Notes: a model not told the origin generated them from the sequence alone. 64,000 nucleotides of DNA from Endomicrobiales bacterium (GCA_963796955.1 CAWCNJ010000005.1:200598-264597), one strand, 5' to 3'; positions 18,771-60,383 are shown, counted from the first letter of the stretch. Numbers and translations are program-made.

Positions 18771-18824
18771 GTCAGTCACGGAGGCATGGAAGGCATTTTT
18801 TGCCGGTATGGGATTTGGTACTAT
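18771..18824 (+). promoter_or_regulatory. GTCA-N44-(-10) promoter
   Basis: GTCAGTCACGGAGGCAT..TGG TACTAT. Confidence 0.55.
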
Positions 18825-18852
18825 TGCATATCAGCTGTAAAAGGAGGATACC

Positions 18853-19101
18853 ATGGCAAAAGCAATAGATCCGGTATGCGGTATGGAAGTGGATACGGAC
18901 TCTGAATTTACCAGCGAATACAACGGGGATACGCTGTATTTCTGCTCTGAGGAAGATAAGGAAGAGTTTGATAAACATCCTGCCAGATATTATGGTAAAG
19001 AAGGTTCGGACGAGAGCGAGGAAAACGAAACAAGCAGTGCAGCCGAAGAAACAGCCAAAGCCTCCGGCGGCAAAAAGCCGGCCAAGGCAGGAAAATGGTA
19101 A
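18853..19101 (+). CDS. YHS domain protein
   Basis: DPVCGM..YFCS. Confidence 0.9.
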   Translation: MAKAIDPVCGMEVDTDSEFTSEYNGDTLYFCSEEDKEEFDKHPARYYGKEGSDESEENETSSAAEETAKASGGKKPAKAGKW

Positions 19102-19189
19102 GAACGTAAAATTAAATATGGTTTTGGGGGCGCCCGCCATGCAGCAGTAAGGCGGGCGGCCCCGGGTGGTATCAGCGGCAACTAATAAA

Positions 19190-19774
19190 TTAGATGCCGC
19201 TGAATTTTATTGCGAACACCAATGCAAGACCGTCCAAATCGTTGTTATGCAGGTTCTTTGTGTCGGCCCCCGAAACCAGGCGGTAATGCAGGCCCAGGTC
19301 GAATTGAAAATGATCCGTCAGATCGACCAGGGCATTAAAGCCCGGTTCAAAAACGAAGATAGTGCTGTCGTCGCTGCTCGCCCCCGTCGTTGAATTGTGC
19401 AGCGCGGCCCTGCCGACCCCGAAAAGGCTGACTACCGAATAGTGTATCGTGTCCACGCGTTCGAAGAAATATTCTATTTCAAGGCCGCCGTACGTTAATT
19501 GATGGTACAGCGTATCACCGGTGTCGCTGGTCCCGTTCGATTTGATGGAAGCGCCGCCCAGACCGTACAGGCCGCCCCCCAGGGCGAGTTTGTTGTCCAT
19601 TATCACGCCGCCGCGCAGGCCCGCTATAATGCCGGGATTGTTGCTGAGCGTGGTCGCGTCGACGACGGCCGCGGCATAACCGCTTTTCTCCGGGCTGGAA
19701 CCCACAAGGGATTCCTGCGCCATAACAGGCGTCACCAGCAAAAACGTGAAAATACAAATAAGAACTTTATTCAT
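19190..19774 (-). CDS. Outer-membrane beta-barrel protein
   Basis: Signal peptide, YGGL.IEY, FVFEP, YRLV. Confidence 0.7.
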   Translation of the reverse strand: MNKVLICIFTFLLVTPVMAQESLVGSSPEKSGYAAAVVDATTLSNNPGIIAGLRGGVIMDNKLALGGGLYGLGGASIKSNGTSDTGDTLYHQLTYGGLEIEYFFERVDTIHYSVVSLFGVGRAALHNSTTGASSDDSTIFVFEPGFNALVDLTDHFQFDLGLHYRLVSGADTKNLHNNDLDGLALVFAIKFSGI

Positions 19775-19794
19775 ACTGCCTCCAGTTAATTAAG

Positions 19795-20742
19795 TTAAAC
19801 AGCCGCGGTCACCCGTCTGGGAAATTGCATTGCCCGGTTCAATAAATATTTGTTGAACCAGCGGGCGGCCTCCCCTGCCGCCTGATCGACGTACACATCC
19901 TGGTCGTAAAGGTCTATGTGGTTCGTGGTGTCTATCCAGAAGAATTCTTTCGCAATAGCAAGCCCCTCGTAAAAGTTACGGGCGTTGTCCGGCACACAGA
20001 AGTTATCGTGCGTGCCGTGTATTATCAGCGTCGGCGCCTGCATCTCTTTGGCGCTGTCCACCGCGTTAAACCTTAACAATCTTTCATATCCCATGACCGC
20101 GAACCGGTTAACGTAGTTCGGCGAATAACCCCTGGCCGTGCCGTAATACAGGAAAGGTTCTTCCGTGGGCATGGCGGCATTCGTGTCCGCGGGGTCCTTT
20201 GTCACCGCCTGTATATATTCCACCTCGCCGCTTTTCTGGAACTTTCCTTCCGCCGTTCTGGACCGTGCGATGATCTTGTTATAATCTTCTTCGCCAAGCC
20301 AGGTCAGCATCGCCTTCGGGTCGTGGTAGCAGCCGGCGATGCCGACAAAAGCTTTCACGCTTTTAAGCTGTGTCAGCGCTTTCGCCATATAGCCGCCGCC
20401 GGCGCAAATGCCCACTGCCCCCACTTTCGTGTGGTCAACATCGGTGCGCATCAACAGGTACGAGACGGCGTTTTGAATGTCTTCCACCTTCTTGTCCGGT
20501 GCTTCCAGCTGCCGTGGTTCTCCTTCGCTTTCGCCGTAAAACCGGTGGTCGAACGTTAAGCAGAGATAACCGTGGGCGGCAAGCCTGCGCGCGTAGACCG
20601 CCGTTACCTGGTCTTTCAGCCCGGTCATCGGCCCGTCGAAGACCAGCGCCGGGTACTTTTTCCCTTCCCGGTATGCATCGGGAAAGAACACCAGTCCAAC
20701 CAGCTTTTTTCCTTCACTTATGAATGTCACTCTTTCTTCCAT
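19795..20742 (-). CDS. Alpha/beta hydrolase
   Basis: FDHRFYGESEGEPR, GICAGG, HG..D, HIDLYD. Confidence 0.9.
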   Translation of the reverse strand: MEERVTFISEGKKLVGLVFFPDAYREGKKYPALVFDGPMTGLKDQVTAVYARRLAAHGYLCLTFDHRFYGESEGEPRQLEAPDKKVEDIQNAVSYLLMRTDVDHTKVGAVGICAGGGYMAKALTQLKSVKAFVGIAGCYHDPKAMLTWLGEEDYNKIIARSRTAEGKFQKSGEVEYIQAVTKDPADTNAAMPTEEPFLYYGTARGYSPNYVNRFAVMGYERLLRFNAVDSAKEMQAPTLIIHGTHDNFCVPDNARNFYEGLAIAKEFFWIDTTNHIDLYDQDVYVDQAAGEAARWFNKYLLNRAMQFPRRVTAAV

Positions 20743-20775
20743 AGCACGGCCCCCGGTAAGAATTAGTTGTAAAAC

Positions 20776-20829
20776 ATTATAGCGCTAAAAGCCGCTATGC
20801 GCGGTACGGGTATTCCATAATTCCCTGAC
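20776..20829 (-). promoter_or_regulatory. GTCA-N44-(-10) promoter
   Basis: GTCAGGGAATTATGGAA..TATAAT. Confidence 0.65.
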
Positions 20830-20910
20830 TTATTCCCTAGAATAATTTCCCGCAATGAGCTAGAATATACCTGTAGGCGCGTTCAGGAGGATACTATCGA
20901 TCTCTCCGTT

Positions 20911-22669: not shown

Positions 22670-22678
22670 AAAACGGTA

Positions 22679-23542
22679 TCAGCCGTTAATTACCTCGCCA
22701 CCGTTAGGGTGCAGCACCTGCCCCGCCATGAAGGACGAATCCCGGGAAGCTAAAAAGACATACGACGGTGCTACTTCTTCCGGCTGGCCCGGCCGGTGCA
22801 TGGGCGATCTTTTACCGAACTCGCTTACCTCATCGGCCGCGAAGCTTGAAGGCACCAGCGGCGTCCATACGGGCCCCGGCGCCACGGCATTCACGCGTAT
22901 ACCCTTCGGCAAAAGGTTGGCGGCAAGCGAGCGGGTAAATGCGACGATCGCCCCTTTGGTGGCGGAATAATCTAACAGCCTCGGACTGCCGCGATAGGCG
23001 GTGACGGAAGCGGTATTGATAATGGTGCTTCCCTGCTTAAGGAACTTCACCGATTCCCGGACCATATAAAAATAGGAGAAAATATTCGTCTTAAAGGTCC
23101 GTTCCAGCTGCTCGTCGCTGAGGGTGCGAATATCGTCGCTAATGAATTGCACGGCGGCGTTGTTCACGAGAATATCCAGATGGCCGAATTCCGACAACGT
23201 TCTTGCCACCGCCTCTTTGCAAAAGGCCGGGTTTGCCACGTCGCCGGATGTAATGATGCATTTTCTGCCGGTCTCTTCCACCATGCTTTGCGCTTTGGCC
23301 GCGTCGGCATGCTCATTGTAATACACAATAGAGATATCCGCACCTTCCTTGGCAAAGAACAATGCCACCGAACGGCCTATGCCGCTGTCGCCGCCCGTAA
23401 TAATAGCGACCTTGTTTTCCAGTTTCCCGCTGCCCCTGTACCACTCTCCCTTTTCCAGGGGCTGCGGTCTCATGACGTCCTCTTTGCCCGGTACCTCGTT
23501 TTGATGTTGCGACGGGATCTCGTATTCCAGTGTTTTCGTCAT
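22679..23542 (-). CDS. SDR oxidoreductase (stress-associated YhxC/YghA type)
   Basis: TGGDSGIG, YSATK, QVLHPNGG. Confidence 0.92.
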   Translation of the reverse strand: MTKTLEYEIPSQHQNEVPGKEDVMRPQPLEKGEWYRGSGKLENKVAIITGGDSGIGRSVALFFAKEGADISIVYYNEHADAAKAQSMVEETGRKCIITSGDVANPAFCKEAVARTLSEFGHLDILVNNAAVQFISDDIRTLSDEQLERTFKTNIFSYFYMVRESVKFLKQGSTIINTASVTAYRGSPRLLDYSATKGAIVAFTRSLAANLLPKGIRVNAVAPGPVWTPLVPSSFAADEVSEFGKRSPMHRPGQPEEVAPSYVFLASRDSSFMAGQVLHPNGGEVING

Positions 23543-23568: not shown

Positions 23569-23622
23569 AATATAATAAATCCCGCGCCCGGGAAACAGGT
23601 ACTTTTTCTTCCTATGCATGAC
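23569..23622 (-). promoter_or_regulatory. GTCA-N44-(-10) promoter
   Basis: GTCATGCATAGGAAGAA..TATATT. Confidence 0.55.
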
Positions 23623-23716
23623 GCTTTTTCCCGCCGGAGCGGCAAAGTAAAACCGCGTACTGCAAAAATGGAAAAGTGTCATTGCCGGGTACAGGAAAGT
23701 TATATATCGTGACGGT

Positions 23717-26668: not shown

Positions 26669-27529
26669 TTAAAAGTCATACACACACAGCACGGAAACGT
26701 TGTTGCCGGAAACCATGGGAAAAAACGCGAAATAAGAGGCTTTCCGGTATGCAAGTGCAGGTGTATGTTTTTGCAGGGATTCTATTTCCCTGGCAGTATA
26801 GTAACCCAAGGCCGCCCCGGGGATAAGGTCCGAGGCCCAGTGCTCGTCCAGAGCCACCATTGAGATCGCGGTAAGAGAAGCTGCCGTATAGGCGATAACG
26901 GGTATGGCCGGGGTATCTGAGAATTCGGTAGCGATGATCGTAGAGAACGCGAACGCGGTAGACGTATGTCCCGAAGGGAACGCGAGATCTTCGACAGACC
27001 TGGGCCCCGGGTACCAGGTATCATACGACAGACCGGTATTAGGCAGCGGCCGTTGCAAAGTCAGTTTGATAGCGCCGGTAAAGATGGAGTTTACGATCAT
27101 TGTCTCGGCGCAAAGCATGCCCGCCCTCTGGTATGTTTCATCATCGTTGAATTCTCCGTACAGGTACAGCAACGCAAGGATCACTATGGGGTACGAGCCA
27201 TCCCCAAAATGCGTGAAAAAGCGGGGGACGATATCGGAAGCGGCCGTCCTGTTTTCCTGTGAATAATTCCGTATATGCGTGTCCTGCGTATAAAGTATGC
27301 CGGCCCCAAGAGCAACGATCCCAACTCTGCTCCAATCCGTTCTTGTGAAATAAAACGGCGCGATAGCGGTGGATCTTAAGTAGTTATATGTTATCGGGAA
27401 TTGCTGCAGGTTCAAATCGTAATTATCGTTACCATCGGCAAAACTATATGTAGCGCAGCATTGAAGGCTCAAAGTCACGGCTAGTGCTAAAACAACTTGA
27501 GCGATATTTGTTTTGGAAATAGTGATCAT
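26669..27529 (-). CDS. PAP2 family phosphatase
   Basis: K..RP, FPSGH, HWASD. Confidence 0.88.
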   Translation of the reverse strand: MITISKTNIAQVVLALAVTLSLQCCATYSFADGNDNYDLNLQQFPITYNYLRSTAIAPFYFTRTDWSRVGIVALGAGILYTQDTHIRNYSQENRTAASDIVPRFFTHFGDGSYPIVILALLYLYGEFNDDETYQRAGMLCAETMIVNSIFTGAIKLTLQRPLPNTGLSYDTWYPGPRSVEDLAFPSGHTSTAFAFSTIIATEFSDTPAIPVIAYTAASLTAISMVALDEHWASDLIPGAALGYYTAREIESLQKHTPALAYRKASYFAFFPMVSGNNVSVLCVYDF

Positions 27530-27557: not shown

Positions 27558-27610
27558 ATTGTACAAAAGACCCACCTGTTCCGGCTGTATACATTCCGCT
27601 TTTAACTGAC
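27558..27610 (-). promoter_or_regulatory. GTCA-N43-(-10) promoter
   Basis: GTCAGTTAAAAGCGGAA..TACAAT. Confidence 0.6.
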
Positions 27611-27680
27611 GCATTTCCCTGAGAACGAAACACCTACATTTTTTCTTGAGAAATACGTTGCAAAGAGTTACAATTATCAT

Positions 27681-31699: not shown

Positions 31700-31832
31700 A
31701 CACCGGTTATACACACCGCCGGCGGCAATGTGACGTATGTGAATAGGGGCCATGAAGATAGCGGTCACTATTGACTCAATACCCTCATTTGCATACAATC
31801 CACGTAAGGCGCTTTAATGACGGGGGGAAGGT

Positions 31833-33404
<1,572 letters not shown>

Positions 33405-39828: not shown

Positions 39829-39829
39829 A

Positions 39830-42377: not shown

Positions 42378-42478
42378 ATATGTGACCTACCTTACCATAC
42401 TGGAAGGCCGCATGAAATGACTTCCGTTATAGAAATACTGTCCGCACATTCCGGTCAACGGCTCCTGCAGATGCGGCG

Positions 42479-42532
42479 GTCAGGGAAATACGGTTATACA
42501 TCATTGCGGCGGTTATTCCGGTGTGCCATAAT
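42479..42532 (+). promoter_or_regulatory. GTCA-N44-(-10) promoter
   Basis: GTCAGGGAAATACGGTT..TGC CATAAT. Confidence 0.65.
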
Positions 42533-43002: not shown

Positions 43003-43089
43003 GCGAAAAGATACATTATCAACCGCCCGGGTATCGTCAATAGGCGATGGCCGGGCGGTTTTTTTACCGTTTTGTGTTTGATAAGAAAA

Positions 43090-43143
43090 GTCAATGTATG
43101 GCGAACAGGTGCTATCAAACTCCCGGTGATAAAAATACATAAT
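43090..43143 (+). promoter_or_regulatory. GTCA-N44-(-10) promoter
   Basis: GTCAATGTATGGCGAAC..CATAAT. Confidence 0.55.
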
Positions 43144-43171: not shown

Positions 43172-44734
43172 ATGCAGACAATTTACGAAAGTTTAAAAGG
43201 CGGCTTAAAGCCTTTCAGCGATCTGGTCTTGAGCCTGGGCAAAAAGCGGGAGGCGGCGCAGGAATCGCTCTTTGAGAAGATCAGCTCTTTTATGCTGGAT
43301 AAGGATTCGGGGCGCAATTTGCTGTTGAAGGTTATAGAGAAAAACGTGGAGAAGCTGTTCCGGGAAGCGAACGAATCGGGCATCGGGTATATTGCGGATG
43401 TAAAAACGCAATACGCCGTCTCTCTGGCGCGTCGGATAAAACACAATCTGGACAGGGGCATCATATCTAAAACGTACATGAAAAGTATAATGAAAACGCT
43501 GTACTACGGTCTTTTTTACAACAATAAAGAGTCGCTGGACTACAAGAAGACCTACGGCACGCTGCCGCCGGCATTTGTCACTATCTCGCCGACACACCGC
43601 TGCAATTTGAACTGCGACGGCTGTTACGCGGCAAGCACGGACAAAACGGTTTCATCGCTGCCCTACAAGGTAGTGGACCGTCTGGTAAATGAAATGCACG
43701 ACCTTATGGGGTCGCGCTTCATAGTGTTCAGCGGCGGGGAGCCGTTCTTCTGGAAAGATGAGGGCAAGGGGATCATTGATATCGCCGAAAGCCATCCCGA
43801 CATGTTCTTTATGGTGTACACTAACGGCCTGCTGTTGAATGAAGAGACGATAAAGCGCCTGACGACCACCGCCAATCTCAGCCCCTCCATTTCAATAGAG
43901 GGTTACGGGGACCTGACCGACGCGCGCAGAGGCGCAGGCACGTATGCGAAAATAATGCAGACAACGGAGCTCATGAAAAAATACGGCTTTCCATTCGGTC
44001 TGTCGGTGACCGCCTCGAAAAAGAATATCGAGCTGCTGCTGGAGGACTCGTTCTACGAACATTTTTATGAGACGGTAGGCGCCACGTATATGTGGATGTT
44101 CCAGTATATGCCGATAGGAAGGGCGAAAGATACGATCGACCTGATGCTGACGCCCGAACAGCGGGTCAACCTGCTGAAGAAATGGGAACACCTGCTGTTC
44201 GATAAATCCTATTTCGTCGCCGATTTCTGGAACTCCGGGGCCGGCAGCGACGGCTGCATCGCCTACGGCAGGCGCGGCGGATATTTTCATGTGAACTGGA
44301 AAGGCAACATTTCGCCCTGCGTCTTTATGCCGTACTGGAAAGATAATATCTACGACCTCTACCGGGACGGCAAAACCATAAAGGACGCCCTCTTCAGCGA
44401 TTATTTTGTGCGGGGCCGGGAATGGCAAAAGACAAAAAATATCTTTACGCCGCAGGCGGACAACCACTTCGCGCCCTGTTCCATACGCGATCATCACGCG
44501 CAGTTCAGGAAAGACATATTGGCTGCCGATATTAAGCCCGACGACGCGAACGCCGGCGCCGCCCTGCAGGATCCCGAATATTATGAAAAACTTACCCGGT
44601 ACGGCACAGAGATCGGACGTCTTACCTTCCCGCTCTGGCAAAAGCGCGTAGGGCCGCAAGCCGGTCTCCGGAGCGTTGCGGACACTGGAACGCAACCGGT
44701 CGCCGTTGCCGCAACGGAAGCAAGCGGATCATGA
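43172..44734 (+). CDS. Radical SAM protein with SPASM/twitch-like C-terminus
   Basis: CNLNCDGC, SGGEP, TNG, GCIA..G.I.PC. Confidence 0.93.
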   Translation: MQTIYESLKGGLKPFSDLVLSLGKKREAAQESLFEKISSFMLDKDSGRNLLLKVIEKNVEKLFREANESGIGYIADVKTQYAVSLARRIKHNLDRGIISKTYMKSIMKTLYYGLFYNNKESLDYKKTYGTLPPAFVTISPTHRCNLNCDGCYAASTDKTVSSLPYKVVDRLVNEMHDLMGSRFIVFSGGEPFFWKDEGKGIIDIAESHPDMFFMVYTNGLLLNEETIKRLTTTANLSPSISIEGYGDLTDARRGAGTYAKIMQTTELMKKYGFPFGLSVTASKKNIELLLEDSFYEHFYETVGATYMWMFQYMPIGRAKDTIDLMLTPEQRVNLLKKWEHLLFDKSYFVADFWNSGAGSDGCIAYGRRGGYFHVNWKGNISPCVFMPYWKDNIYDLYRDGKTIKDALFSDYFVRGREWQKTKNIFTPQADNHFAPCSIRDHHAQFRKDILAADIKPDDANAGAALQDPEYYEKLTRYGTEIGRLTFPLWQKRVGPQAGLRSVADTGTQPVAVAATEASGS

Positions 44735-46119
44735 GAATATTACTTGTCTATCCAAAGACCACCGTTCTTTACAAGGCGTTCAGCATCGATATTCCGCCGC
44801 TCGGGTTGCTGTATGTCGCCGGTAATTTAAGACAGCACGGCCACATTGTCTCTATCCTCGATGAAAATGTGAACGGCCCGGTGGAGCAAAACGATATGGC
44901 ACAATACGACGTGATAGGTCTGGGCCCCAGTACCTGCTGTTACAACAGGGCGCTTACCATAGCGGCACGGGCCAAGGAAATGAAAAAGTTCGTCATGATG
45001 GGCGGTTTTCACGCCACCTTCATGGATGAGGAAACGCTCAGGACCGGTTTTGTGGATGCCGTGGTGCGGGGAGAGGGGGAAGTGACATCCGCGGCGCTGG
45101 CTGACACGCTGGCGGGCGGCGAAGATATCGGCACCGTTCTAGGAGTCAGTTATCTGAACGGGAATACCCTGGTCAGAACGCCGGACCGCCCCGTGCTGGA
45201 GGACCTGGATTCGATCCCCTACCCTGCCCGGGACCTGATAGATATTTCCAAATACCGGCTTTTCCTGGAAGGGAAACCCGTGACGCCGTTCTCCACCTCC
45301 CGGGGCTGCTCGCACGACTGTCATTTCTGCGCCGCGACAAAATTCAACGCACGGCGTTGGCGGGCGCGCCGGCCGGAACTGGTAGTGGATGAGATGGAAT
45401 ACGCGCTTAACAAGCGTCAGGGCGAAGGTTTTATCATAACCGACGATAATTTTACCGTCAACCCCAAACGGGTCAGGGAGATCTGCGGCCTGATACGCTC
45501 ACGGGGCCTGCATATTCCCTGGTGGTGCATGTCGCGCACGGACGTGCTGGTGAACAACCGCGACATAGTGAAAAATATGGCGGACGCCGGCTGCAAGACG
45601 GTATTCCTGGGGATAGAAAGCGGCAAGGAGGATGTGCTCTCCGATATGAACAAGCGGGCGACGACGGCCATGGCCAGGGAAGCGGTGGATATTCTGAACG
45701 ACGCCGGCATCGGGGCGTACGGCAGCTTTATTATGGGCGACATACGCGAAACAGCGGCGGATATTAAAAAAACGATAGCGTTCAGTAAAAGCCTGAAGCT
45801 GGAGGTCGCGCAATTCTCTATTATTACGCCCTTCCCGGGCACCGAACTGTACAAAAACGTCAAGGACAGGATCAGTGACACCAACTGGGACCATTATGAG
45901 GGGCTGCACAGCGTTATCAGACTGGATACCCTGTCGAAGAAGAAAGTTGAGAATCTTCTGCTGAAAGCCTACCTGGGTTTTTATCTGCGGCCCAGGATAC
46001 TGTGGTTGATATTCAAGAATATCATCGTGCGCAACAGATCCCTGAAGGTGATCTGGACTCTCAGCTCCGCATTCCTCAAACGCATCTTTAAGGACACCGC
46101 GCCCGTTACCGCCAAATAG
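44731..46119 (+). CDS. B12-binding radical SAM protein
   Basis: PPLGL, GG.H.T, GEGE, SRGC...C.FC, GIES. Confidence 0.93.
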   Translation: MRILLVYPKTTVLYKAFSIDIPPLGLLYVAGNLRQHGHIVSILDENVNGPVEQNDMAQYDVIGLGPSTCCYNRALTIAARAKEMKKFVMMGGFHATFMDEETLRTGFVDAVVRGEGEVTSAALADTLAGGEDIGTVLGVSYLNGNTLVRTPDRPVLEDLDSIPYPARDLIDISKYRLFLEGKPVTPFSTSRGCSHDCHFCAATKFNARRWRARRPELVVDEMEYALNKRQGEGFIITDDNFTVNPKRVREICGLIRSRGLHIPWWCMSRTDVLVNNRDIVKNMADAGCKTVFLGIESGKEDVLSDMNKRATTAMAREAVDILNDAGIGAYGSFIMGDIRETAADIKKTIAFSKSLKLEVAQFSIITPFPGTELYKNVKDRISDTNWDHYEGLHSVIRLDTLSKKKVENLLLKAYLGFYLRPRILWLIFKNIIVRNRSLKVIWTLSSAFLKRIFKDTAPVTAK

Positions 46120-46146
46120 AATGTTCTGGTAAAGAAAGGAGAGTGT

Positions 46147-46605
46147 ATGACCGTAAAAACCGAAGAGCTTAACAGGATGCTGGTACTGCAGGAGATGGGT
46201 CAGGTGGAAGACTCGGCGTCCTATCTTGCCGATGATTTTAAATTTTCAGGGCCCGTGCCGGAACCGCTGAATAAAAATCAATTCGTCTCGCTTATGACGG
46301 GTCTTACGACCGCGCTGCCCGATTGGCGATTCAATCATGTCTTTCTGGAAGACCGGGGCGATACGGTACGCATGAAAATACGGGTTACCGGCACCAATCT
46401 TGGTTTGATAAGCCTGCCCCAGCTCGGCCTTGCTTCTCTGGCGCCTACGCGTAAAAGGGTCGCGCTGCCGGATGAACCGGTTGAAATAGTATTCCGGAAC
46501 GAAAAGATAATTTCTATCAAGATCACGCCCGTGGACGGCGGCGGTATCCGCGGCTTATTCGATCAATTGGGGATAGAGCTGCCCGCACCGGCCATGGCGA
46601 GATAG
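46147..46605 (+). CDS. SnoaL-like/ester cyclase (NTF2 fold)
   Basis: LADDF, A.PD, TGT, PT.K.V, QLG. Confidence 0.75.
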   Translation: MTVKTEELNRMLVLQEMGQVEDSASYLADDFKFSGPVPEPLNKNQFVSLMTGLTTALPDWRFNHVFLEDRGDTVRMKIRVTGTNLGLISLPQLGLASLAPTRKRVALPDEPVEIVFRNEKIISIKITPVDGGGIRGLFDQLGIELPAPAMAR

Positions 46606-46624
46606 TACACCAGCGGGGAATCAA

Positions 46625-46678
46625 GTTACTGAATTGCGAATACAGGCAATTTGCTCTCGGGTCCGATAATGGTATCGT
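46625..46678 (+). promoter_or_regulatory. GTTA-N44-(-10) promoter
   Basis: GTTACTGAATTGCGAAT..TGG TATCGT. Confidence 0.45.
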
Positions 46679-46716: not shown

Positions 46717-46968
46717 ATGAAGAGCATGAGGATAGTTATTACGTTGATGCTGTTGGGAGCCGGTTCATTGGGCCTGGCGTATGCCCAATCATCCCAGGAG
46801 GTAATGAAATCTACCGAAACTCAAACTGAGAAGGTAAGCATGACCTCGACCAACGACGCAGGGACGAACAGTTCCGATACGAACACGAACTACGATTCGA
46901 AAACAAGCACGTCCAGTTCGACCGGCACCGGGACGAATACGGACATGGGTACCGGCACCACTAAATAG
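46717..46968 (+). CDS. Secreted Ser/Thr-rich low-complexity protein
   Basis: GGAGG RBS, signal peptide ending AYA; terminator at 46991-47029. Confidence 0.75.
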   Translation: MKSMRIVITLMLLGAGSLGLAYAQSSQEVMKSTETQTEKVSMTSTNDAGTNSSDTNTNYDSKTSTSSSTGTGTNTDMGTGTTK

Positions 46969-47860: not shown

Positions 47861-48301
47861 TTAGCGTACGGCCGAAGGCGTGGCGGTCCTGATGGAATTT
47901 TCAAGATCGTCCATCGCGTTCTCTACGCTCTTTGTGCTTTCAGAGGTAGAGGTCGGCTTCAGGTTGTTCAGCATGCTCTTAACCGAGGTCCTCTTTCCTT
48001 TTAATTCAGCGATGGCCGTATCCATTTTATCGCGCTCGGCGCCCGACATATTATCGGCGTTCTTTTTAAGGGCGTCGATCCTGTTGTCTGCGGCGCTCAG
48101 CCGGTTCTTCATGGTCTCCTTGAATCCGTTGATGTTGGCCGTCCCGGTGCCCGTATCGCCCCAAGACGAGTCCTTGTTCGTCGGTGTTGTCATCGTGTCG
48201 CTGGAACTTTGACCGCTGTAGTTCATCTCCGCTGACGACACTGAAGCCATCAAAGACATCCCAAGGAACAGGTACAGTATAAACGAAGCTGTTTTTTTCA
48301 T
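47861..48301 (-). CDS. Secreted coiled-coil protein, paralog of 51591
   Basis: Signal peptide; FK..K.RL..SVK.ML.NLK..DLEN. Confidence 0.75.
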   Translation of the reverse strand: MKKTASFILYLFLGMSLMASVSSAEMNYSGQSSSDTMTTPTNKDSSWGDTGTGTANINGFKETMKNRLSAADNRIDALKKNADNMSGAERDKMDTAIAELKGKRTSVKSMLNNLKPTSTSESTKSVENAMDDLENSIRTATPSAVR

Positions 48302-48363: not shown

Positions 48364-48417
48364 ACTGTAGTATATACCGCTGTACTAAGACATTGTCTGT
48401 TTCACCATCACGGTGAC
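48364..48417 (-). promoter_or_regulatory. GTCA-N44-(-10) promoter
   Basis: GTCACCGTGATGGTGAA..TACAGT. Confidence 0.6.
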
Positions 48418-48430
48418 TTAAATTTCCGCC

Positions 48431-48886: not shown

Positions 48887-48989
48887 ACGTCCCTCCTTAA
48901 TGGTCTGCTGCAGCGGTCACGCGTGCATTGTAATACTTACATTTTTCTTTCACAAGGCCCGTCCGTGACTTATTTCTTCCTGAATAAAA

Positions 48990-49043
48990 GTCATGTATCC
49001 TGGCAAACCGGCGATTAATTATGGCCTGCGTTAATGGCATAGT
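48990..49043 (+). promoter_or_regulatory. GTCA-N44-(-10) promoter
   Basis: GTCATGTATCCTGGCAA..TGG CATAGT. Confidence 0.55.
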
Positions 49044-49068: not shown

Positions 49069-50040
49069 ATGGAGCATATAGTGAAAAAATTGAACATATT
49101 GACCTGGCATGTGCACGGTAATTACCTATATTATCTAAGCCGGATACCGCACAATGTCTATGTGCCGTATAAGGAGAGCAGGCCGCCGGATTACAGCGGA
49201 AGGCCGCCCGGTTTTAACTGGCCGGACAACCTGCATGAAGTCCCCGCCGAGCAGGTAAAGGAACTGCATTTGGATTGCATATTATTTCAACGGCGTTCCC
49301 AGTACCTGAATGACCAGTACCTGCTGCTGAGCCCCGAGCAACAGCGGCTGCCGAAGATCTATCTTGAGCACGCTGCGGTATGCGAGGTGCTTTCGGCGTG
49401 CGGGGTTAATGTGATCGCCGCCGATGTACAGGCGGAGGCGGCGTTGAAAGTCGCGCAAGAACTGCAGGATAAAGGCGGCTCCGCCCGGGCGGTAACGCTG
49501 GACGTGGGGGACGAAGGGCAGGCGCAAAAAGCCGTGCAGCAGGCGGTAGATGAATTCGGTGCGCTGGATATCCTGATCAATAACGCGGGAGTGGACGTTA
49601 CCTGTTCCATCGACGAGATGACCTGCGCGGATTGGGACAAAATAATCCGCGTCAATCTGCGCGGTCCGTTCGTGATGTCAAAGTACGCCCTTGAGGCGAT
49701 GCGCGCTCAGGGCTCCGGACACATCGTAAATATTTCTTCGACGGCGGCTAAACGGGCCTGGGCGAACGCCTCCGGTTATCATGCCAGCAAATGGGGCCTG
49801 CTGGGTTTCAGCCACGCCCTGCATGTGGAAGCGCGCCCGCACAATATAAAAGTAACGGCGGTGGTCAGCGGCGGCATGCGCACACCTTTTTTGCTGGACC
49901 GCTTCCCCGACATAGACCCGAATAATTTGCAGGACCCGCGCAACGTCGCGGAAACGATCCGTTATGTGCTCAGCCAGCCCGCGGGCACCGTGATCCCCGA
50001 GGTCATGGTGTTGCCCATGCGGGAAACCTCCTGGCCCTGA
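49069..50040 (+). pseudogene. In-frame chimera: glycosyltransferase N-terminus fused to an SDR lacking its TGxxxGxG motif
   Basis: TWHVHGNY..IYLEH, then NNAG and YHASK. Confidence 0.7.
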
Positions 50041-50062
50041 TCCTATAGATAGGAGTGTAATT

Positions 50063-50704
50063 ATGTATACCCTTGGAATAAACGCCGCCTTCCACGATTC
50101 CGCGGCAAGCCTGGTAAAGGACGGTGCGGTGCTGGCCGCAACCGAGGAAGAACGGTTTACCGGTATAAAGCACGGCAAGCGCCCGGTACCGTTCTCCACG
50201 TATGAGCTGCCGTTCCATGCGATAGACCACTGCCTGTCGTACGCCGGTATTTCTATGAGAGAGGTCGACCATGTGGCCTACTCCTACGATCCGGCCCTCA
50301 GGCTGCACGGCCGTCCAGAGACCGTCGTAACACTGCCGCTGCAGCCGAGCGCGCAGGCCGCGCCGGAAGGGTGGGAATCCCCGTGGGACCCTTTGTTCGT
50401 TTCCTCTATCGTGAACGCCCCCCGGCAGCTGGCGGACGGTGCCCCGCATCATCTGGCGGAACGTTTCCGCGGTGTCGATTATAACGGTCCTCAGCGCTGG
50501 CATTTTGTTGATCACCACCGGGCCCACGCCGCAAGCGCCTACCTGCCATCCCCTTTCGACGAAGCGGCGGTGCTCACGCTCGACGGCCGCGGGGAGAACA
50601 TGACCACCGGCTACAGTCTGGGCTCGCAACATACGCTGACCGAACTGGGCAGCGTGCGCATGCCGCACTCCCTGGGGCATCAGCATTGCCCAGCAGAAAA
50701 ATAG
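50063..50704 (+). pseudogene. Truncated carbamoyltransferase (NodU/CmcH N-domain)
   Basis: HDSAA, EEERF, HH.AHA, DGRGE; ends after PHSLG. Confidence 0.85.
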
Positions 50705-51029
50705 CATGTTCAACGCCCTGCTGTACAAAAAGCATCCGGAGCTGTTCCTGGAACGCATACAAGCGCAGCCGCCGCTGCGCTATTACGCGATAATCATGTG
50801 TTTTACGGCGGCACTGGCCGGCGCGTTAGCCGGCAAAACGGAAATAACGCTGGAGTTCGCCCTCGGCTGGCTGGGCCTGACGCTCTTTTTTGTCGTTGAT
50901 CGCCTGACCGGCGCTTCTATTGCGGCGCCTCATATAGTAGAGATGCTCCTTACCTCGCTCGCCGTCCCGTTCCTGTCGGTCTTTTGGCGGCTCTATGGGG
51001 CGGTAAAGTTCAAAGTCGCATATATATAA
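50670..51029 (+). pseudogene. C-terminal remnant of a membrane glycosyltransferase (GT2-like)
   Basis: PWGISIAQQKNSMFNALLYKKHP plus TM tail. Confidence 0.6.
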
Positions 51030-52184: not shown

Positions 52185-52370
52185 TCAACTTTTTTTTGGT
52201 GGTGGTGGTACTTTTGCACCTTTTTTCCGTGCCTCTGAAAGACCGATCGCAACCGCCTGCCTGGGGTTGTGCACCGTATGCCCGGATCTACCGCTTTTAA
52301 GTTTTCCCTCCTTGAATTTATGCATGTCTTCCTTGACTACTTCCTGCGCAGCGGGTGCATATCGTGCCAT
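52185..52370 (-). CDS. DUF6496-like small basic protein
   Basis: G.LKSGRSG..V..QAVAIGLSEARKKG. Confidence 0.85.
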   Translation of the reverse strand: MARYAPAAQEVVKEDMHKFKEGKLKSGRSGHTVHNPRQAVAIGLSEARKKGAKVPPPPKKS

Positions 52371-52406: not shown

Positions 52407-52460
52407 TTTTTAGCATTTAGGGTGCACTAAAATAATGGTTGCGTTCCACAATGAACTGAT
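52407..52460 (-). promoter_or_regulatory. ATCA-N44-(-10) promoter
   Basis: ATCAGTTCATTGTGGAA..AAATGC TAAAAA. Confidence 0.6.
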
Positions 52461-52532
52461 GCGTTTTGTAAAAGGCCCGTCGGGCGGCAATAGAGTCAAT
52501 GGAAAGTAGAATCGATCCATGTGCCGGAGGCC

Positions 52533-52633: not shown

Positions 52634-53554
52634 TCAGCGCACCTTTAAGACTATCTTGCCGCGGGTATGGGTGCTTTTAAGCAGCTGGTGCGCTTCGCCG
52701 GCTTTTTCCAGCGGGAAGATGTCGGTGACGACAACCTGCACATGGCCGGCATCTATGAGCTTGCCGATCTGTCTGAGCTGACTGCCGTCAGCATGCACCA
52801 TAAGACGCCGGGCGGCCGCTTTTTTAGCGAGCGCCTTTTCGGCGGAAGGCTCGTTCTTGGTTGTAACGAACGTGCCGCCGTCCTTTAATACCGCCCAGGA
52901 GCGTTCCTGCACTTCTCCGCCGATAAGGTCGAGCACCAGATCGATATCGCGCACCTTCTCCTCAAAGGGTCCGGCCTGGTAATCTATCGCTTCGTTCGCT
53001 CCGATGGTTCTAAGGAACGCCAAATCCTGTGATGCGGCCGTGCCGATCACGTACGCGCCGGCGTTATGGGCGAACTGTACCGCGAAACCGCCCACGCCGC
53101 CCGCCGCGCCCTGTATGAATACCCGATGGCCGGTTACCAGGTTGCCCAGATCAAAAAGCGATTGCCAGGCCGCCAGAGCGGCAAGCGGTACCGCCGCCGC
53201 CTTTGTAAAATCCAGTATGGCGGGCTTCGGCGCCAGGTTTTCCGCCTTGGCGACCGCGTACTCCGCGTAGCCGCCCGAATAGCCTATCATACCGAAGACG
53301 GCGTCGCCGACGGCAAAGCCTTTGACCCGTTCACCGGTTCTTTCGATAACGCCGGCAATATCGCCGCCGGGGATAAGAGGAAGGGGGAACGTTCCCTTAT
53401 AACCGCCTTCCCGTATTATCACGTCTACCGGGTTCACGCCTGCTGCTTGCACGCTTACCAGTACCTCGTCTTCCTTCAGCGCCGGGATCTTTTCTTCCTC
53501 ATACCGTAAAACCTCCGGACCCCCGAATGTGCGTTCAATTATCGCATGTGGCAT
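52634..53554 (-). CDS. NADP-dependent (quinone) oxidoreductase, MDR family
   Basis: GVNPVD, GAAGGVG, GKIVL. Confidence 0.93.
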   Translation of the reverse strand: MPHAIIERTFGGPEVLRYEEEKIPALKEDEVLVSVQAAGVNPVDVIIREGGYKGTFPLPLIPGGDIAGVIERTGERVKGFAVGDAVFGMIGYSGGYAEYAVAKAENLAPKPAILDFTKAAAVPLAALAAWQSLFDLGNLVTGHRVFIQGAAGGVGGFAVQFAHNAGAYVIGTAASQDLAFLRTIGANEAIDYQAGPFEEKVRDIDLVLDLIGGEVQERSWAVLKDGGTFVTTKNEPSAEKALAKKAAARRLMVHADGSQLRQIGKLIDAGHVQVVVTDIFPLEKAGEAHQLLKSTHTRGKIVLKVR

Positions 53555-53600: not shown

Positions 53601-53654
53601 TTTTTAGCATTTAATTTCTGTAAAATTCATCGTGGCGCTCCACCGGTCACTGAC
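53601..53654 (-). promoter_or_regulatory. GTCA-N44-(-10) promoter
   Basis: GTCAGTGACCGGTGGAG..AAATGC TAAAAA. Confidence 0.6.
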
Positions 53655-53711
53655 GTAATTAATCGTTGCCTTCCCGTGAAATATAGTGTAAGCTCGCTGA
53701 AGGGCACAGAC

Positions 53712-53764
53712 GTCAGCGAAAGGCGGTTCGGCGACAGGTTGAGCCCTGTATATATTGGTATAAT
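53712..53764 (+). promoter_or_regulatory. GTCA-N43-(-10) promoter
   Basis: GTCAGCGAAAGGCGGTT..TGG TATAAT. Confidence 0.6.
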
Positions 53765-53792: not shown

Positions 53793-54266
53793 ATGAATCC
53801 GCAACGCATTTTGATGTTCGCATTGCTCAGCATCGCGCTGTTATCCGCTGTAGCATGTGCCCGGGATGAGGCAGGGCTTGGCATTATGATCGGCGCTCCG
53901 ACGGGAGTAAGCGGAAAGCTATGGAAAAGCGATACCAGGGCCTTTGATGCCGCTCTCGGCTGGTCACTTTCCGGTACCGAATCATTCTACATGCACGCCG
54001 ACTACCTGGTGCAGGATCCCCGGCAATTCACCGTGAGCGAGGGAACCATGCCGTATTATTACGGTATCGGGGCCCGGCTGCGCAACGACAATGGTGAAGA
54101 GGGCCGTTTCGGGGTGCGCGTGCCGCTGGGCCTGGAATATCTTTTGCAGGACGCCCCGATAAACATATTCATTGAGATAGCGCTGGTGCTGGACCTGACG
54201 CCTAAGACGGAAGGCGATCTGAACGCCGGTGTCGGCGTACGCTATCGTTTTAAAACGCCCCGCTAA
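53793..54266 (+). CDS. Small outer-membrane beta-barrel (DUF3996-like)
   Basis: GLG..G.PTG.S.K, G.R.P.G, GVRYRF. Confidence 0.75.
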   Translation: MNPQRILMFALLSIALLSAVACARDEAGLGIMIGAPTGVSGKLWKSDTRAFDAALGWSLSGTESFYMHADYLVQDPRQFTVSEGTMPYYYGIGARLRNDNGEEGRFGVRVPLGLEYLLQDAPINIFIEIALVLDLTPKTEGDLNAGVGVRYRFKTPR

Positions 54267-54313
54267 ACCGCCGTTCGTGTTGACGTTTGTCTCCAAAAAC
54301 GTATAATAAAGGT

Positions 54314-54691
54314 GTGAAAAAGAAAATACTGGTCGTTGAAGATGATCGGCAGGCCGCGATGGTGCTGCAGGTGCGGTTGAACGCGGCCGGCTATGAGGCC
54401 TACGTTGCCTACAACGGCGAAGAAGGCTGGCACCTGATACAGGCCATAACGCCGGACCTGGTGATCCTTGATGTTGAAATGCCCCTGCTTAACGGTTACG
54501 GCGTTTGCGAGCTGATAAAAGCGAAACCGGAAACAAAACATATCCCCATTCTGCTGCTTACCTCCCGCGACACCGTGGGAGACATAGACACCGGCTTCGA
54601 TTCCGGAGCCGATTCATTCCTGGCAAAACCCTACACTTGGGAACGCCTGCACAATAAGATCAAACAACTATTAATGACACCAGAGACCTGA
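54314..54691 (+). CDS. Single-domain response regulator
   Basis: VVEDD, LDVEMP, LT, KP. Confidence 0.93.
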   Translation: MKKKILVVEDDRQAAMVLQVRLNAAGYEAYVAYNGEEGWHLIQAITPDLVILDVEMPLLNGYGVCELIKAKPETKHIPILLLTSRDTVGDIDTGFDSGADSFLAKPYTWERLHNKIKQLLMTPET

Positions 54692-56196: not shown

Positions 56197-56273
56197 AAGG
56201 TCGTAACGATACATACATGTCCCGGTTATGAAACAGCCTTACGCAAGGCACCCAGACCGAAAGGAAGGGTGTC

Positions 56274-57377: not shown

Positions 57378-57382
57378 ACCGT

Positions 57383-58408: not shown

Positions 58409-59094
58409 ACGTACAGCTCCTGATGGACAGGCGAGCTAAAGTACGTTGCGGGCGGTCCGTCGAAAACAACGCTGCCCCGGTGCAGCACGATAAGACGGGA
58501 GGCGAGTGCGCGTATCTCTTCAGGTCTGTGGGAACTGAAAAGAATAGTTTTTCCGTCGAGATTTGTTTTTTTTACGAGCCGGTGTACCTCCCGGGTCATA
58601 TCAAAATCCAGGCCGGATGTCGGCTCATCCAGCAGCAGCACAGGCGGGTCGGGTAGTAATGAGCGGCCTATGCTGACGCGTTGTTTCAAGCCTTTGGAAA
58701 GGTTTTGCACTTTGCCGGTACGGAAGTTCTCAAGCCCGAACTCGCGCATAACCTCGCGTACCCGCGCCATGGGTAGCGCAAAGAGCCCGGCGAAAAGAGA
58801 AAGGTTATATTCGACTGAAAATGATCCGAAAAGATTCGGTTCCTCAGGCACGAAGCCGGCGTTCCGTACCAGCGCCTGCCGGTCCCTGAGGCTGCAGCCG
58901 CCGACCAGGGCCGTGCCGCTGTCGGGCACCAGCCAGCCGCCCAGTATTTTTAAAAGGGTTGATTTACCAGCGCCGTTGTGGCCGACGACGGCAACACATT
59001 CGCCTGTCCGAACGGTAAAATTTACGGAAAAAATACCCCTGGATCGCCGGTATCTTTTGGTAAGACCCTCAAGACATATCTGCATGAACCTCAC
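58405..59094 (-). CDS. ABC transporter ATP-binding protein
   Basis: GHNGAGKS, LSKG, LDEP. Confidence 0.95.
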   Translation of the reverse strand: MRFMQICLEGLTKRYRRSRGIFSVNFTVRTGECVAVVGHNGAGKSTLLKILGGWLVPDSGTALVGGCSLRDRQALVRNAGFVPEEPNLFGSFSVEYNLSLFAGLFALPMARVREVMREFGLENFRTGKVQNLSKGLKQRVSIGRSLLPDPPVLLLDEPTSGLDFDMTREVHRLVKKTNLDGKTILFSSHRPEEIRALASRLIVLHRGSVVFDGPPATYFSSPVHQELYV

Positions 59095-59103
59095 TGCCCC
59101 CCG

Positions 59104-59166
59104 TCAGATCAGCCGCACCAGTATTATTACCAATATCACAACGATCAACAATCCGATCAATCCCAT
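59104..59166 (-). CDS. 20-aa hydrophobic peptide missed by the ORF track
   Basis: MGLIGLLIVVILVIILVRLI; RBS AGGGGGG. Confidence 0.65.
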   Translation of the reverse strand: MGLIGLLIVVILVIILVRLI

Positions 59167-59250
59167 GGTGCCCCCCTGTTAATGCGGCAGTTAAAGGCCG
59201 CAGCAGTGTAAGCATCACACGGCTGCGGCCGTTCCATTGTAACCCTGCTT

Positions 59251-59787
59251 TTATTTGCTGATGCCGACCTTCTCCCTGATCTCTTTTTCCGTGCCGACGT
59301 CCATGCCGCCGGTGCGTTTCAGGATATCTTCAGCGCGGTCCTTGGATATGGAATCTTTGGTGTGCACGGAAAGCAATATCTCGCCGAGCGCGATCCTGTT
59401 CTCATATCTTTTGGCCTCGTATTCCGGCATACCGATGCCGGTAAGGGCTCCGGCGATACCGCCGATGGTCCCACCTGTTCCGGCGCCGGCCAGTAATGCC
59501 ATGATCGGTCCCGCCGCGATAAATGGCCCGATCCCCGGGATGGAAAGCAGTCCTACGCCCGCCAGCCAGCCAAGAACGCCGCCGATGATACCGCCCGTTA
59601 AACCGCCCGTTGTTGCGCCTTCGGGAGCTTTCGTAGTCTTTTTAAAGCCCAGGTCGCTTGCTGTTTTTTCGGCCGCCAGCAGGGATATATCGGTATTAAT
59701 GAATCCCGCGTCCCTCAGCTCGTTCAAAGCCGTTTCTACTTTTGCCCTGTTGGAATAGATCCCAAATACTGCTTCATTGTTTGCCAT
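59251..59787 (-). CDS. General stress protein (glycine-zipper membrane type)
   Basis: IPGIGPFIAAGP, G.PEYEAKRYE. Confidence 0.85.
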   Translation of the reverse strand: MANNEAVFGIYSNRAKVETALNELRDAGFINTDISLLAAEKTASDLGFKKTTKAPEGATTGGLTGGIIGGVLGWLAGVGLLSIPGIGPFIAAGPIMALLAGAGTGGTIGGIAGALTGIGMPEYEAKRYENRIALGEILLSVHTKDSISKDRAEDILKRTGGMDVGTEKEIREKVGISK

Positions 59788-59827
59788 AGTACTGCCTCCT
59801 TTTTGTATATAACCATCCCCGATGTCA

Positions 59828-60226
59828 TTATTTCTTTTCAGCGATATCCAGCTGATCCACCACTTTTCCCTCGCCCGCCAGCGCCGTTGCTTTTTTCACC
59901 ACCGCCGTTTTTTCGCTCTCCGACCTCACGGGGCCTTTTAGTGTGACCACGCCCTTGACCGTAATGATCTTGACATTGTGGGCGTAGGCGGACAACGTTT
60001 TGTCGTCGACGATAGCCCTGCGTATCCGTTTTGATAATTCTCTGTCCGTCACGGAGCCGCTTTGATCGCCGGCGTTAGGCTCATTCAGCTGCATTTCGGT
60101 CTTGTTGACCCCGGTATTATCGCCGGCGTTGGTTGTTGTGCTCTGCTGTACCGCAAACGCGCTGCCGCAACATGCCGCGCTTAAAACCAGTATCGCGATG
60201 CATAGTATGGATCTTATGTTGAACAT
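59828..60226 (-). CDS. BON domain protein
   Basis: IRRA..LS..AHNVKII..G.VTL.GPV. Confidence 0.9.
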   Translation of the reverse strand: MFNIRSILCIAILVLSAACCGSAFAVQQSTTTNAGDNTGVNKTEMQLNEPNAGDQSGSVTDRELSKRIRRAIVDDKTLSAYAHNVKIITVKGVVTLKGPVRSESEKTAVVKKATALAGEGKVVDQLDIAEKK

Positions 60227-60265
60227 AGTACTGCCTCCCTTATGGTCTATTTCACGCCTTGCATG

Positions 60266-60383
60266 AATGTAGCATTAAGGCCCTCGTGCTTCATATTGTC
60301 GGTTTCCACAAGAAGCTGATGAAAGTCCCGTCAGCGGCAGGGGGAAACGCACCCTTTGTTATACGGTGAAATTTTGAGACAAT
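60266..60383. promoter_or_regulatory. Back-to-back pair of (G/A)TCA-N44/45-(-10) promoters
   Basis: Minus: ATCAGCTTCTTGTGGAA..TGC TACATT; plus: GTCAGCGGCAGGGGGAA..TGA GACAAT. Confidence 0.6.

Follow-up and report, generated by a model that had tools for sequence, protein, structure and literature searches.

Fourteen predicted promoters in a 64,000-nt stretch of an Endomicrobiales genome (Elusimicrobiota; the whole stretch is termed the window) share a short element at a fixed distance from the -10 box, which raises the question of what recognises this element and with which sigma factor it acts. The original prediction placed GTCA-type cores upstream of these genes; all 14 were found in place, on the same strand as the downstream gene and 79-116 nt 5' of its start codon, with a -10-like hexamer following after 44 nt in 11 sites, 43 nt in two (PAP2, OMP 53712) and 45 nt in one (BON). 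The sites (the element being a putative operator) and further features of the window are as follows; ranks are those in a model built from sites of other genomes.

18763..18824, plus strand: element and -10 of the YHS gene (18853); rank 332, among the three weakest sites
20776..20837, minus strand: element and -10 of the alpha/beta hydrolase gene (19795-20742); rank 20
23569..23630, minus strand: element and -10 of the SDR gene (22679-23542); rank 35
27558..27618, minus strand: element and -10 at 43 nt, PAP2 gene (26669-27529); rank 14
42471..42532, plus strand: element and -10 of the DUF2383 ferritin-like gene (42562-43002); weakest site, rank 505
43082..43143, plus strand: element and -10 of the radical SAM operon (43172-46605); rank 41
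46617..46678, plus strand: element (GTTA variant) and -10 of an 83-aa gene (46717-46968); rank 7
48364..48425, minus strand: element and -10 of the sll1863-family stress protein gene (47861-48301)
48982..49043, plus strand: element and -10 of the ORF 49069-50040, followed by a carbamoyltransferase fragment
52407..52468, minus strand: element and -10 of the DUF6496 gene (52185-52370)
53601..53662, minus strand: element and -10 of the zinc-type oxidoreductase gene (52634-53554)
53704..53764, plus strand: element and -10 at 43 nt, gene 53793-54266 and receiver gene 54287-54691
60266..60328, minus strand: element and -10 at 45 nt, BON/OsmY-like gene (59828-60226) and YflT-like gene (59251-59787)
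60322..60383, plus strand: element and -10 of the beta-barrel OMP gene (60438-61025); rank 197
15403..15465, minus strand: further candidate site beyond the 14, aldo-keto reductase gene (14365-15321); 24.2 bits in the own-genome model
31833..33404, plus strand: soluble PAS-PAS histidine kinase, candidate input, one of eight phosphotransfer-domain paralogues
31771..31799, plus strand: promoter of the PAS kinase, a plain TTGACT-N17-TACAAT lacking the element
54287..54691, plus strand: single-domain receiver, 21 nt past the end of the preceding gene (54266) and probably part of the transcript from the 53712 promoter

No family match was obtained for the 83-aa gene or for the gene at 53793, which had been called an OMP. 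The gene 47861-48301 belongs to the sll1863 family (NF052504, 40.2 bits, cut-off 35). The ORF 49069-50040, formerly listed as a 'GT remnant', matched SDR proteins with its C-terminal portion; its N-terminal 100 aa gave no match. The distal half-sites of the divergent BON and OMP 60330 promoters overlap.

The extended form RTCAG-N7-YGGAA occurs five times in the window against 0.43 expected, a count reached in 0 of 100 shuffles, and four of the five are sites noted earlier. In 31 operon-head upstream regions between 18 and 62 kb of the window, a region picked on the basis of the earlier finding, the histogram of GTCA to -10 distances showed the anticipated peak at 44 (9 cases; 0-2 at any other spacing), and GTCA came first among 256 tetramers for such a peak. 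When EM was run de novo on the window's full set of 46 operon heads, with no hand picking, the motif again emerged as the top model, with a log-likelihood of 212 compared with 154-170 for four shuffles, which were run with fewer starts. For a held-out test, an upstream-block matrix without -10 information was trained on the 14 sites and used at a threshold of 8 bits. It revealed 67 new intergenic matches elsewhere in the genome, 17 of them with a -10-like hexamer at exactly 44 nt, compared with a mean of 2.3 over 29 other spacings (corrected P about 1e-8). Loci of relatives contained 60 sites, 54 of them at 44 nt, versus 2 in reversed controls. The model built from other genomes' sites placed 11 of the 14 window sites within the top 71 of 4.2 million positions, the YHS, DUF2383 (42479) and OMP 60330 sites being the weakest; the radical SAM site, lost from the iterated own-genome model, yet ranked 41.

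That the element is a chance pattern or a non-regulatory repeat family is extremely improbable. In favour of chance are the shortness of the core, the manual choice of the first sites and the 540 matches within coding sequence that the upstream-block matrix also gives at 8 bits. Against it stand the held-out spacing peak, the de novo recovery and the excess over reversed controls in the relatives' loci, and spacers have diverged while the motif columns stay fixed. Loose IUPAC patterns gave low contrast in the own genome (e.g. 22 at the right spacing vs 6-17 shifted); matrices and a stricter pattern took their place. With training restricted to the 14 window sites, a matrix added about 23 sites, giving about 37 in the genome; the iterated own-genome model reached 25, 31, 32, 34 and 36 sites in five rounds and had not converged, so the total of 36-37 is approximate. 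The aldo-keto reductase site is part of the iterated training set and of the de novo EM result, and scores below 6 bits in the foreign-only model. On the window's operon heads, EM also yielded a motif without GTCA that scored 210, near the 212 given above.

The element proved larger than the 4-nt core first described, measuring about 35 bp, and extends from about -68 to -35 rather than from -60 to -45. It is made up of a direct-repeat pair of 21-bp period (consensus GAA-N4-GTCAR ... GGA-N8-AT), to which the GTCA core belongs. The column-profile correlation over 110 sites of other genomes showed its maximum at lag 21 (0.155), followed by lag 20 (0.109), and column tables of own and ortholog sites showed two sub-boxes in each repeat. 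Spacings between TTGACA and TATAAT peak at 17 in the whole genome (65 vs 3-14 at other spacings). Placed from the -10 with this 17-bp spacer, the conserved T past the second repeat is the first base of the -35 position, and the T and the G that follow it are each found in 18 of 24 ortholog sites. In an ordinary TTGACA-N17-TATAAT promoter the -35 box would begin just at the end of the second repeat, and the proximal half-site touches or overlaps the -35 hexamer as positioned from the -10; this accounts for the fixed 44 nt. Since the window contains no Rfam match and no tRNA or tmRNA, the element is not a known RNA.

As noted before, the sites have no TTGACA -35 box, the 14 matching 0-3 of six positions at the 17-bp spacer. 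Other -10-like sites do not match significantly better (at least 4/6 in 81/496 vs 2/36 regulon sites; P 0.10), and 'weak -35' is therefore a description, not a demonstrated peculiarity of the regulon. The proposal of one activator acting through housekeeping-type -10 boxes, and not of a SigB- or EcfG-type sigma factor, fits every test run: an EcfG-type promoter consensus was matched in 0/14 sites and a SigB-like one in 1/14, over the ribosome-binding site. A sigma-54-like string was matched in 1/14 sites, far upstream of the -10.

It is quite unlikely that the activator works with a short RpoS-like sigma factor (G000:C8:501378) rather than RpoD, the circuit then being an activator plus a stress sigma. 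The best family match of this protein is RpoS with 261 bits (below the cut-off; RpoD 258), and many sites of the family f24 have TATACT as their -10. A C at -13, the hallmark of RpoS promoters, is however present in only 15 of 110 foreign sites, and the geometry is that of the genome's housekeeping 17-bp spacer. Nor does the sigma gene track the motif: it occurs in most of 80 genomes with or without the motif and the regulator described below, and was not found in the regulator genomes G203 and G247.

The window had been reported to hold no cognate regulator, and the likely one was found on contig C9:

G000:C9:41814-42584, outside the window: receiver-AraC response regulator (REC + HTH_18)

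This is the only AraC gene in the assembly. Its C-terminal double-HTH AraC domain matched HTH_18 with 73 bits (cut-off 33.6), and the AlphaFold model (mean pLDDT 83) displays seven helices in residues 132-233. The recognition helices are conserved, and the phospho-acceptor pocket is intact, with D9, D10, D52, T80 and K102 invariant in 96 homologues. The family comprises 458 proteins at E <= 1e-40, which databases label 'YesN/AraC family'; no NCBIfam equivalog cut-off was reached among the 25 best matches. In the regulator cluster the motif lies 5' of a REC-kinase, of the regulator itself and of a receiver. On these grounds the element is probably the operator of the genome's sole AraC protein, which when phosphorylated would activate a general stress regulon.

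Motif and regulator co-occur across genomes. The strict pattern was found in 27/36 Elusimicrobiota genomes with the regulator vs 22/364 without it (400 genomes), within f24 in 18/20 vs 1/27, and in Omnitrophota in 8/21 vs 9/230, leaving 9/36 and 13/21 regulator genomes of the two phyla without a match; these counts overstate significance because the pattern was tuned on sites including some of the same ortholog loci and kin genomes are not independent. A best site of at least 20 bits was present in 5/5 full-length ortholog loci vs 0/24 receiver-only loci, and 3.3-kb regulator loci carried a site in 22/29 cases in one set and 10/22 in another. Among metagenome regulator loci, 40/80 had a site; 49/50 sites were on the regulator's strand (reversed control 1), and only 9/50 lay directly 5' of the regulator gene, for which 75 loci had room.

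Linkage cannot tell a regulator from a target, and the element might be bound by a different factor (LytTR, CRP/FNR or one missed by the assembly), the AraC gene being no more than a target; we consider this very unlikely. A period close to 21 bp is also known from LytTR operators, and the assembly, 81% complete, lacks the ~575-aa RpoD that 5/5 relatives have, so another regulator could be missing too. Against this, the 81%-complete assembly gave 0 LytTR gene matches, the site is not the CRP/FNR palindrome TGA-N6-TCA (T at -8 in 3/14 own and 7/110 foreign sites; -8 and -7 mostly G), and among the genes of this cluster only the regulator, kinases and receivers recur in 62 regulator loci tested.

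Eight of the genome's 23 H-box kinases have 26-60 of 60 residues in common in the phosphotransfer domain, the remaining 15 at most 15. The eight are soluble proteins of PAS/GAF/CheB-CheR types. Both the PAS kinase at 31833 and the receiver at 54287 (earlier 54314) had been suggested as signal sources. For the kinase, one of the eight, this is supported by 38/60 residues round its His shared with the regulator-cluster kinase; the receiver looks like a co-transcribed target instead, its first helix being unlike those of the cluster receivers. The kinase subfamily is present in 20/36 Elusimicrobiota regulator genomes vs two weak matches in the 364 without the regulator. It was not found in 16/36 regulator genomes, and one site in f24 lies 5' of a receiver-PilB-type ATPase gene, so the output may differ there.

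The stress role and the co-regulation of the targets are suggested by their gene families. Own-genome targets include Ku-LigD, ferritin-like, rubredoxin, hemerythrin, AHSA1, lmo0937-family, sll1863-family, BON and DUF2383 genes, and those of relatives Ku, AHSA1, BON, YtxH (twice), MsrB, an OsmC-like fragment and pirin. Ku-LigD, DUF2383, BON, YflT-like, YtxH, lmo0937 and sll1863 are typical general-stress families. ku and ligD are described as stress-regulon genes in PMC6379672. Numerous other targets lack a name or act in metabolism (alternative complex III, TonB receptors, pyruvate oxidoreductase).

With the same regulator and operator, the regulon might respond to a single cue, the oxygen or redox state. 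Own sites lie 5' of alternative complex III, cytochrome c assembly, rubredoxin, hemerythrin, ferritin-like and flavin oxidoreductase genes, those of relatives 5' of multicopper oxidase, MsrB and the OsmC-like fragment, and the kinases are soluble PAS/GAF proteins. We regard this as unlikely, because the Ku-LigD, BON/OsmY, YtxH, YflT-like, lmo0937- and sll1863-family genes are not oxygen-specific and eight kinases with varied sensors suggest several inputs.

For a general stress regulon under the receiver-AraC regulator we propose the following mechanism. Up to eight soluble PAS/GAF/CheB-CheR kinases, including 31833, would phosphorylate Asp52 of the regulator directly or via neighbouring single receivers. 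Two protomers would next occupy roughly -68 to -56 and -47 to -35, with each sub-box (GGA/GAA or GTCA/GCNA) taken by one HTH. As in class II activation, the proximal protomer may touch sigma-70 region 4 and so offset the poor -35 box. The motif 5' of the regulator, its REC-kinase and a receiver would provide positive feedback, and the predicted output is a set of DNA end-joining, ferritin-like, redox, envelope and osmotic proteins.

The operator design is that of classical AraC/XylS systems. According to PMC3878776 and PMC3870299, 21-bp direct repeats are a reported design of REC-AraC and other AraC operators, including those of Bacteroides hybrid two-component systems (PMC3878776). XylS at Pm and related activators are similar in having a double-HTH domain, two direct repeats with two sub-boxes each and a proximal repeat that meets the polymerase site (PMC5481539, PMC3870299). 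Here, however, the sequence differs, a receiver replaces the effector-binding domain, and about 37 promoters are concerned instead of one catabolic operon.

YesN-type REC-AraC proteins are partnered by a sensor kinase in the membrane and by a nearby sugar-uptake locus. No such pairing was found at the regulator cluster: C9:30-50 kb contains no sugar transporter, and the neighbours are soluble HisKA kinases and receivers. The receiver plus AraC architecture is shared with the Bacteroides systems (PMC3878776), YesN and Geobacillus XynC/AraT, but those mostly serve local sugar-use regulons with one sensor, whereas several kinases, all soluble, are present here. Pneumococcal YesN is reported to switch on an oxidative-stress operon and to have no clear motif (PMC11034029).

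In a search of mostly open-access texts, we found no published description of the motif, the regulator or a multi-kinase receiver-AraC stress regulon. All general stress responses known to us act through alternative sigma factors (RpoS, SigB, EcfG). Whether Elusimicrobiota, Omnitrophota and other uncultured lineages use a further design seems evenly balanced: many soluble kinases would act on one receiver-AraC activator, which would direct sigma-70 polymerase to a Ku-LigD/ferritin/OsmY-type regulon, with no stress sigma and no anti-sigma. The alphaproteobacterial Pak-SdrG-PhyT-PhyR-EcfG response similarly combines several stress kinases, single-domain receivers and one response regulator, with ku and ligD as targets, but its output is the ECF sigma factor EcfG, freed by partner switching (PMC5898713, PMC6379672); here the kinases are of HisKA type and the output is a predicted DNA-binding activator at sigma-70-type promoters. 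If this holds, a two-component AraC activator does the job of a stress sigma in phyla with almost no regulatory biology. The analysis names a candidate regulator, delimits a putative 35-bp operator, and points to candidate kinases and to dozens of unnamed genes that probably act in stress; the motif lets the regulon be read from other genomes of these phyla, and the predictions are testable in E. coli or in vitro, the organism being uncultured.

Structure matches to the regulator included Geobacillus XynC/AraT (PDB 6swl, 6swi, 3lsg) as well as MarA/SoxS/Rob/RamA and GadX (E 1e-6 to 7e-5); in the fold search receiver domains dominated the matches and nothing was added. MarA/SoxS/Rob/RamA and GadX belong to the AraC family, activate stress regulons of many genes and can do so from beside the -35. 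None of them has a receiver domain, and Mar-type proteins bind as monomers to one 20-bp box in more than one position and orientation, in contrast to the tandem pair at one fixed position and the receiver-containing regulator found here. In a search of 50% clusters the AraC domain was likewise present in longer fusion proteins, and it merged gradually with the wider family.

All 14 GTCA-type cores that the original prediction had placed ahead of stress genes in the window (G000:C5:200598-264597) are present, each oriented as its gene, and a -10-like hexamer follows after 44 nt in 11 sites, 43 nt in two and 45 nt in one. Genes were called in the source assembly (2.1 Mb, 11 contigs, rated 81% complete) with our own hexamer-based script, which gave 1820 genes. 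A histogram of GTCA-to-(-10) distances at the 31 operon heads between 18 and 62 kb of the window bore out the proposed spacing peak, with nine cases at 44 nt and 0-2 elsewhere; GTCA at 44 nt ranked first among the 256 tetramers at these heads. At the remaining 588 heads the top enrichment was TCAG at 42 nt, with GTCA at 43-44 nt within the top nine. Run on the complete set of 46 operon heads in the window, de novo EM returned the motif as its best model. It also retrieved a weak motif-like sequence at window 33529, ahead of an ACP-FabG-acetyltransferase-FabH operon, but this lies below the matrix thresholds. A matrix of the upstream block only found 67 new intergenic matches, 17 of them with a -10 at exactly 44 nt compared with a mean of 2.3 at other spacings. 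With a model from 110 foreign-genome sites, themselves picked with the G000 matrix, 11 of the 14 sites ranked within the top 71 of 4.2 million positions, and the YHS, DUF2383 and OMP (60330) sites at 197-505. An AcrB-type gene split in three pieces (window 36993-39861) and an EF-Tu gene in pieces (G000:C5:32936-34144) suggest indel errors in the assembly; such errors may account for some of the 43- and 45-nt spacings and for apparent pseudogenes.

The GTCA core is real; it is not the whole element, as the site alignment shows further conserved blocks. Counted from the G of GTCA as 0, these are GA at -7/-6, GTCAR at 0-4, GGA at 13-15, C at 22 and AT at 24-25. After 22 free bases follows TAnnnT at 48-53, with T at 43 and often TG at 45-46. 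The blocks from -7 to 4 and from 14 to 25 are direct repeats, and profile correlation is maximal at a lag of 21. Ordinary promoters of the genome are of the form TTGACA-N17-TATAAT (65 cases at a spacer of 17, 3-14 at others). With a 17-bp spacer upstream of the -10, the -35 box begins at the conserved T at 25, which is followed by T and G, each in 18 of 24 ortholog sites. Because repeat 2 ends at the start of the -35, the 44 nt equal 21 (rest of repeat 1 to end of repeat 2) plus 6 (-35) plus 17. Assuming a start 7 nt past the -10, the half-sites would lie near -68 to -56 and -47 to -35. The 14 sites match the -35 hexamer poorly, at 0-3 of 6 positions, though other -10-like sites are not significantly better in this. 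At window 60317-60333 the distal half-sites of the divergent BON and OMP promoters overlap on opposite strands, and these promoters may compete or share a protomer. Further divergent pairs occur at G000 C9:40357/40395 and C5:150862/150885, and such pairs recur in relatives.

A 21-bp direct repeat is the design described for AraC-family operators (PMC3870299, PMC3878776 and, for XylS, PMC5481539). The assembly contains one AraC gene and one LuxR-type gene, and no LytTR gene was found in it. The AraC gene (C9:41814-42584) encodes a receiver and an HTH_18 domain with an invariant phospho-pocket, and its closest titled homologue comes from an Endomicrobiales genome; G000 itself is placed in Endomicrobiales, within Elusimicrobiota. 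It is flanked by a receiver-kinase on one side and by a PAS-kinase and then three receivers on the other. The motif stands upstream of the receiver-kinase, the regulator and one receiver of this cluster; the sites at C9:40395, 41702 and 44249 all came from the first matrix, prior to the regulator search. The motif is very likely the operator of this receiver-AraC regulator. The same AraC domain is also found in longer proteins of 400-780 aa (P0123-P0272), some of which have at least two AraC-like stretches or long C-terminal extensions past the receiver-AraC part.

Across genomes, the best site reached at least 20 bits in 5/5 loci with full-length orthologs (Endomicrobiales, Elusimicrobiales, Omnitrophota and Schekmanbacteria) versus 0/24 receiver-only loci. 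Further regulator loci had sites in 22/29 (three of the 29 duplicate loci of the previous comparison), 10/22 and 40/80 cases. Among 400 Elusimicrobiota genomes, 36 were regulator-positive (AraC domain E <= 5e-19; five weaker matches counted as negatives), and a strict motif pattern occurred in 27 of these (65 matches) versus 22 of the 364 others; family f24 had it in 18/20 genomes with the regulator versus 1/27 without, and Omnitrophota in 8/21 versus 9/230 (two control matches), the significance of all these counts being overstated because these regulator loci partly served to tune the pattern and related genomes are not independent. The 22 pattern-bearing negatives have one match each, ten of them a single, nearly identical sequence from genus g52, and the reversed pattern gave eight matches in 401 genomes. 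In 24 stretches selected around regulators and pattern matches we found 60 sites of at least 17 bits, 54 of them at 44 nt, and two in reversed sequence. The genes behind relatives' sites encode Ku, AHSA1, BON, YtxH (twice), MsrB, pirin, an OsmC-like fragment, dienelactone hydrolases, TonB receptors, receivers and the regulator; no Pfam family matched 19 of the 58. In one relative (G119) all nine strict-pattern matches lie on the regulator's contig (C26:53112-142774), so that here, as in the window, the regulon forms an island.

The PAS kinase of the window (31833) aligns closely around the His with the kinases of the regulator cluster. Eight of 23 H-box kinases have 26-60 of 60 residues around the His in common; the remainder have at most 15. 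By hydropathy all eight lack membrane helices (one flagged stretch is within a receiver domain), and N-terminally they have PAS, GAF, CheB-CheR or receiver domains, or in one case a short unassigned stretch only. The subfamily was detected in 20/36 regulator genomes, mostly adjoining the regulator, and weakly in 2/364 others, with at most 14 candidates scored per genome. By established two-component logic, shared phosphotransfer helices point to shared receivers, and the eight would pair with the same ones. No operator accompanies the plain sigma-70 promoter of the PAS kinase, as would suit a sensor that is always present. Input from multiple kinases to the regulator appears reasonably probable. 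Kinases of the subfamily were not seen in most f24 genomes, and in one genome of this family (G214, L130:11062-13137) a site adjoining the regulator lies ahead of a gene for a receiver fused to a type II/IV secretion ATPase; f24 may have redirected the regulon.

Two short group-2-like sigmas and one ECF sigma were detected; the long RpoD of relatives was not found in the 81% complete assembly. The RpoS-like short sigma is widespread in genomes with and without the motif, and C at -13 is not enriched at the sites. RpoD is the likelier partner and the short sigma a less likely one; class II activation with RpoD is probable. Ahead of an acylphosphatase gene and that of the RpoS-like sigma, a tandem duplication of about 120 bp precedes an apparent tRNA gene (G000:C8, L017:3621-3830).

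An iterated matrix, not yet converged, found 36 intergenic sites of at least 17 bits in the genome. Fourteen fall in the window (3% of the genome), comprising 13 of the predicted sites and a new one at 15457. An extra 23-bit site, which extends into the end of the gene before it, lies 85 nt upstream of ku, and ku is followed by ligD. Other sites precede genes for a ferritin-like protein, rubredoxin, hemerythrin, alternative complex III, cytochrome c assembly, AHSA1, DUF748, AsmA, SnoaL and fatty-acid hydroxylase, and one precedes a flavin oxidoreductase, followed by NmrA, an lmo0937-family gene and a CheB-CheR-PAS kinase. We lean towards general stress rather than a narrower cue as the signal to which the regulon responds. 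The operator would act in the manner of XylS/AraC class II sites, and the protein is a regulator of the receiver-AraC type, so neither is new in kind; our literature search found no description of a stress regulon of this design. Similar wiring is described in Sphingomonas, which combines numerous kinases with single receivers and one regulator (PMC5898713); in rhizobia, ku/ligD belong to the EcfG targets (PMC6379672). Unlike in the Sphingomonas/EcfG systems, the output here is a predicted DNA-binding activator.

An operator also precedes a 475-aa membrane protein with a weak Cache match and a C-terminal PAS, without kinase domain (G000:C5:60952-62379), and a 471-aa PAS protein in G119 (L115:14336-15751). 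ORF 49069 consists of about 100 N-terminal residues without family match, possibly of glycosyltransferase origin, fused in frame to an SDR and followed by a carbamoyltransferase fragment; this region (window 49069-51029) resembles what a deletion would leave of a longer operon. Window 4206-9919, of low GC (0.39-0.44), encodes a LexA/S24-type repressor, cytosine methylase, Vsr, DUF6998, exonuclease and an AAA/DUF4143 protein, and looks like a separately acquired module.
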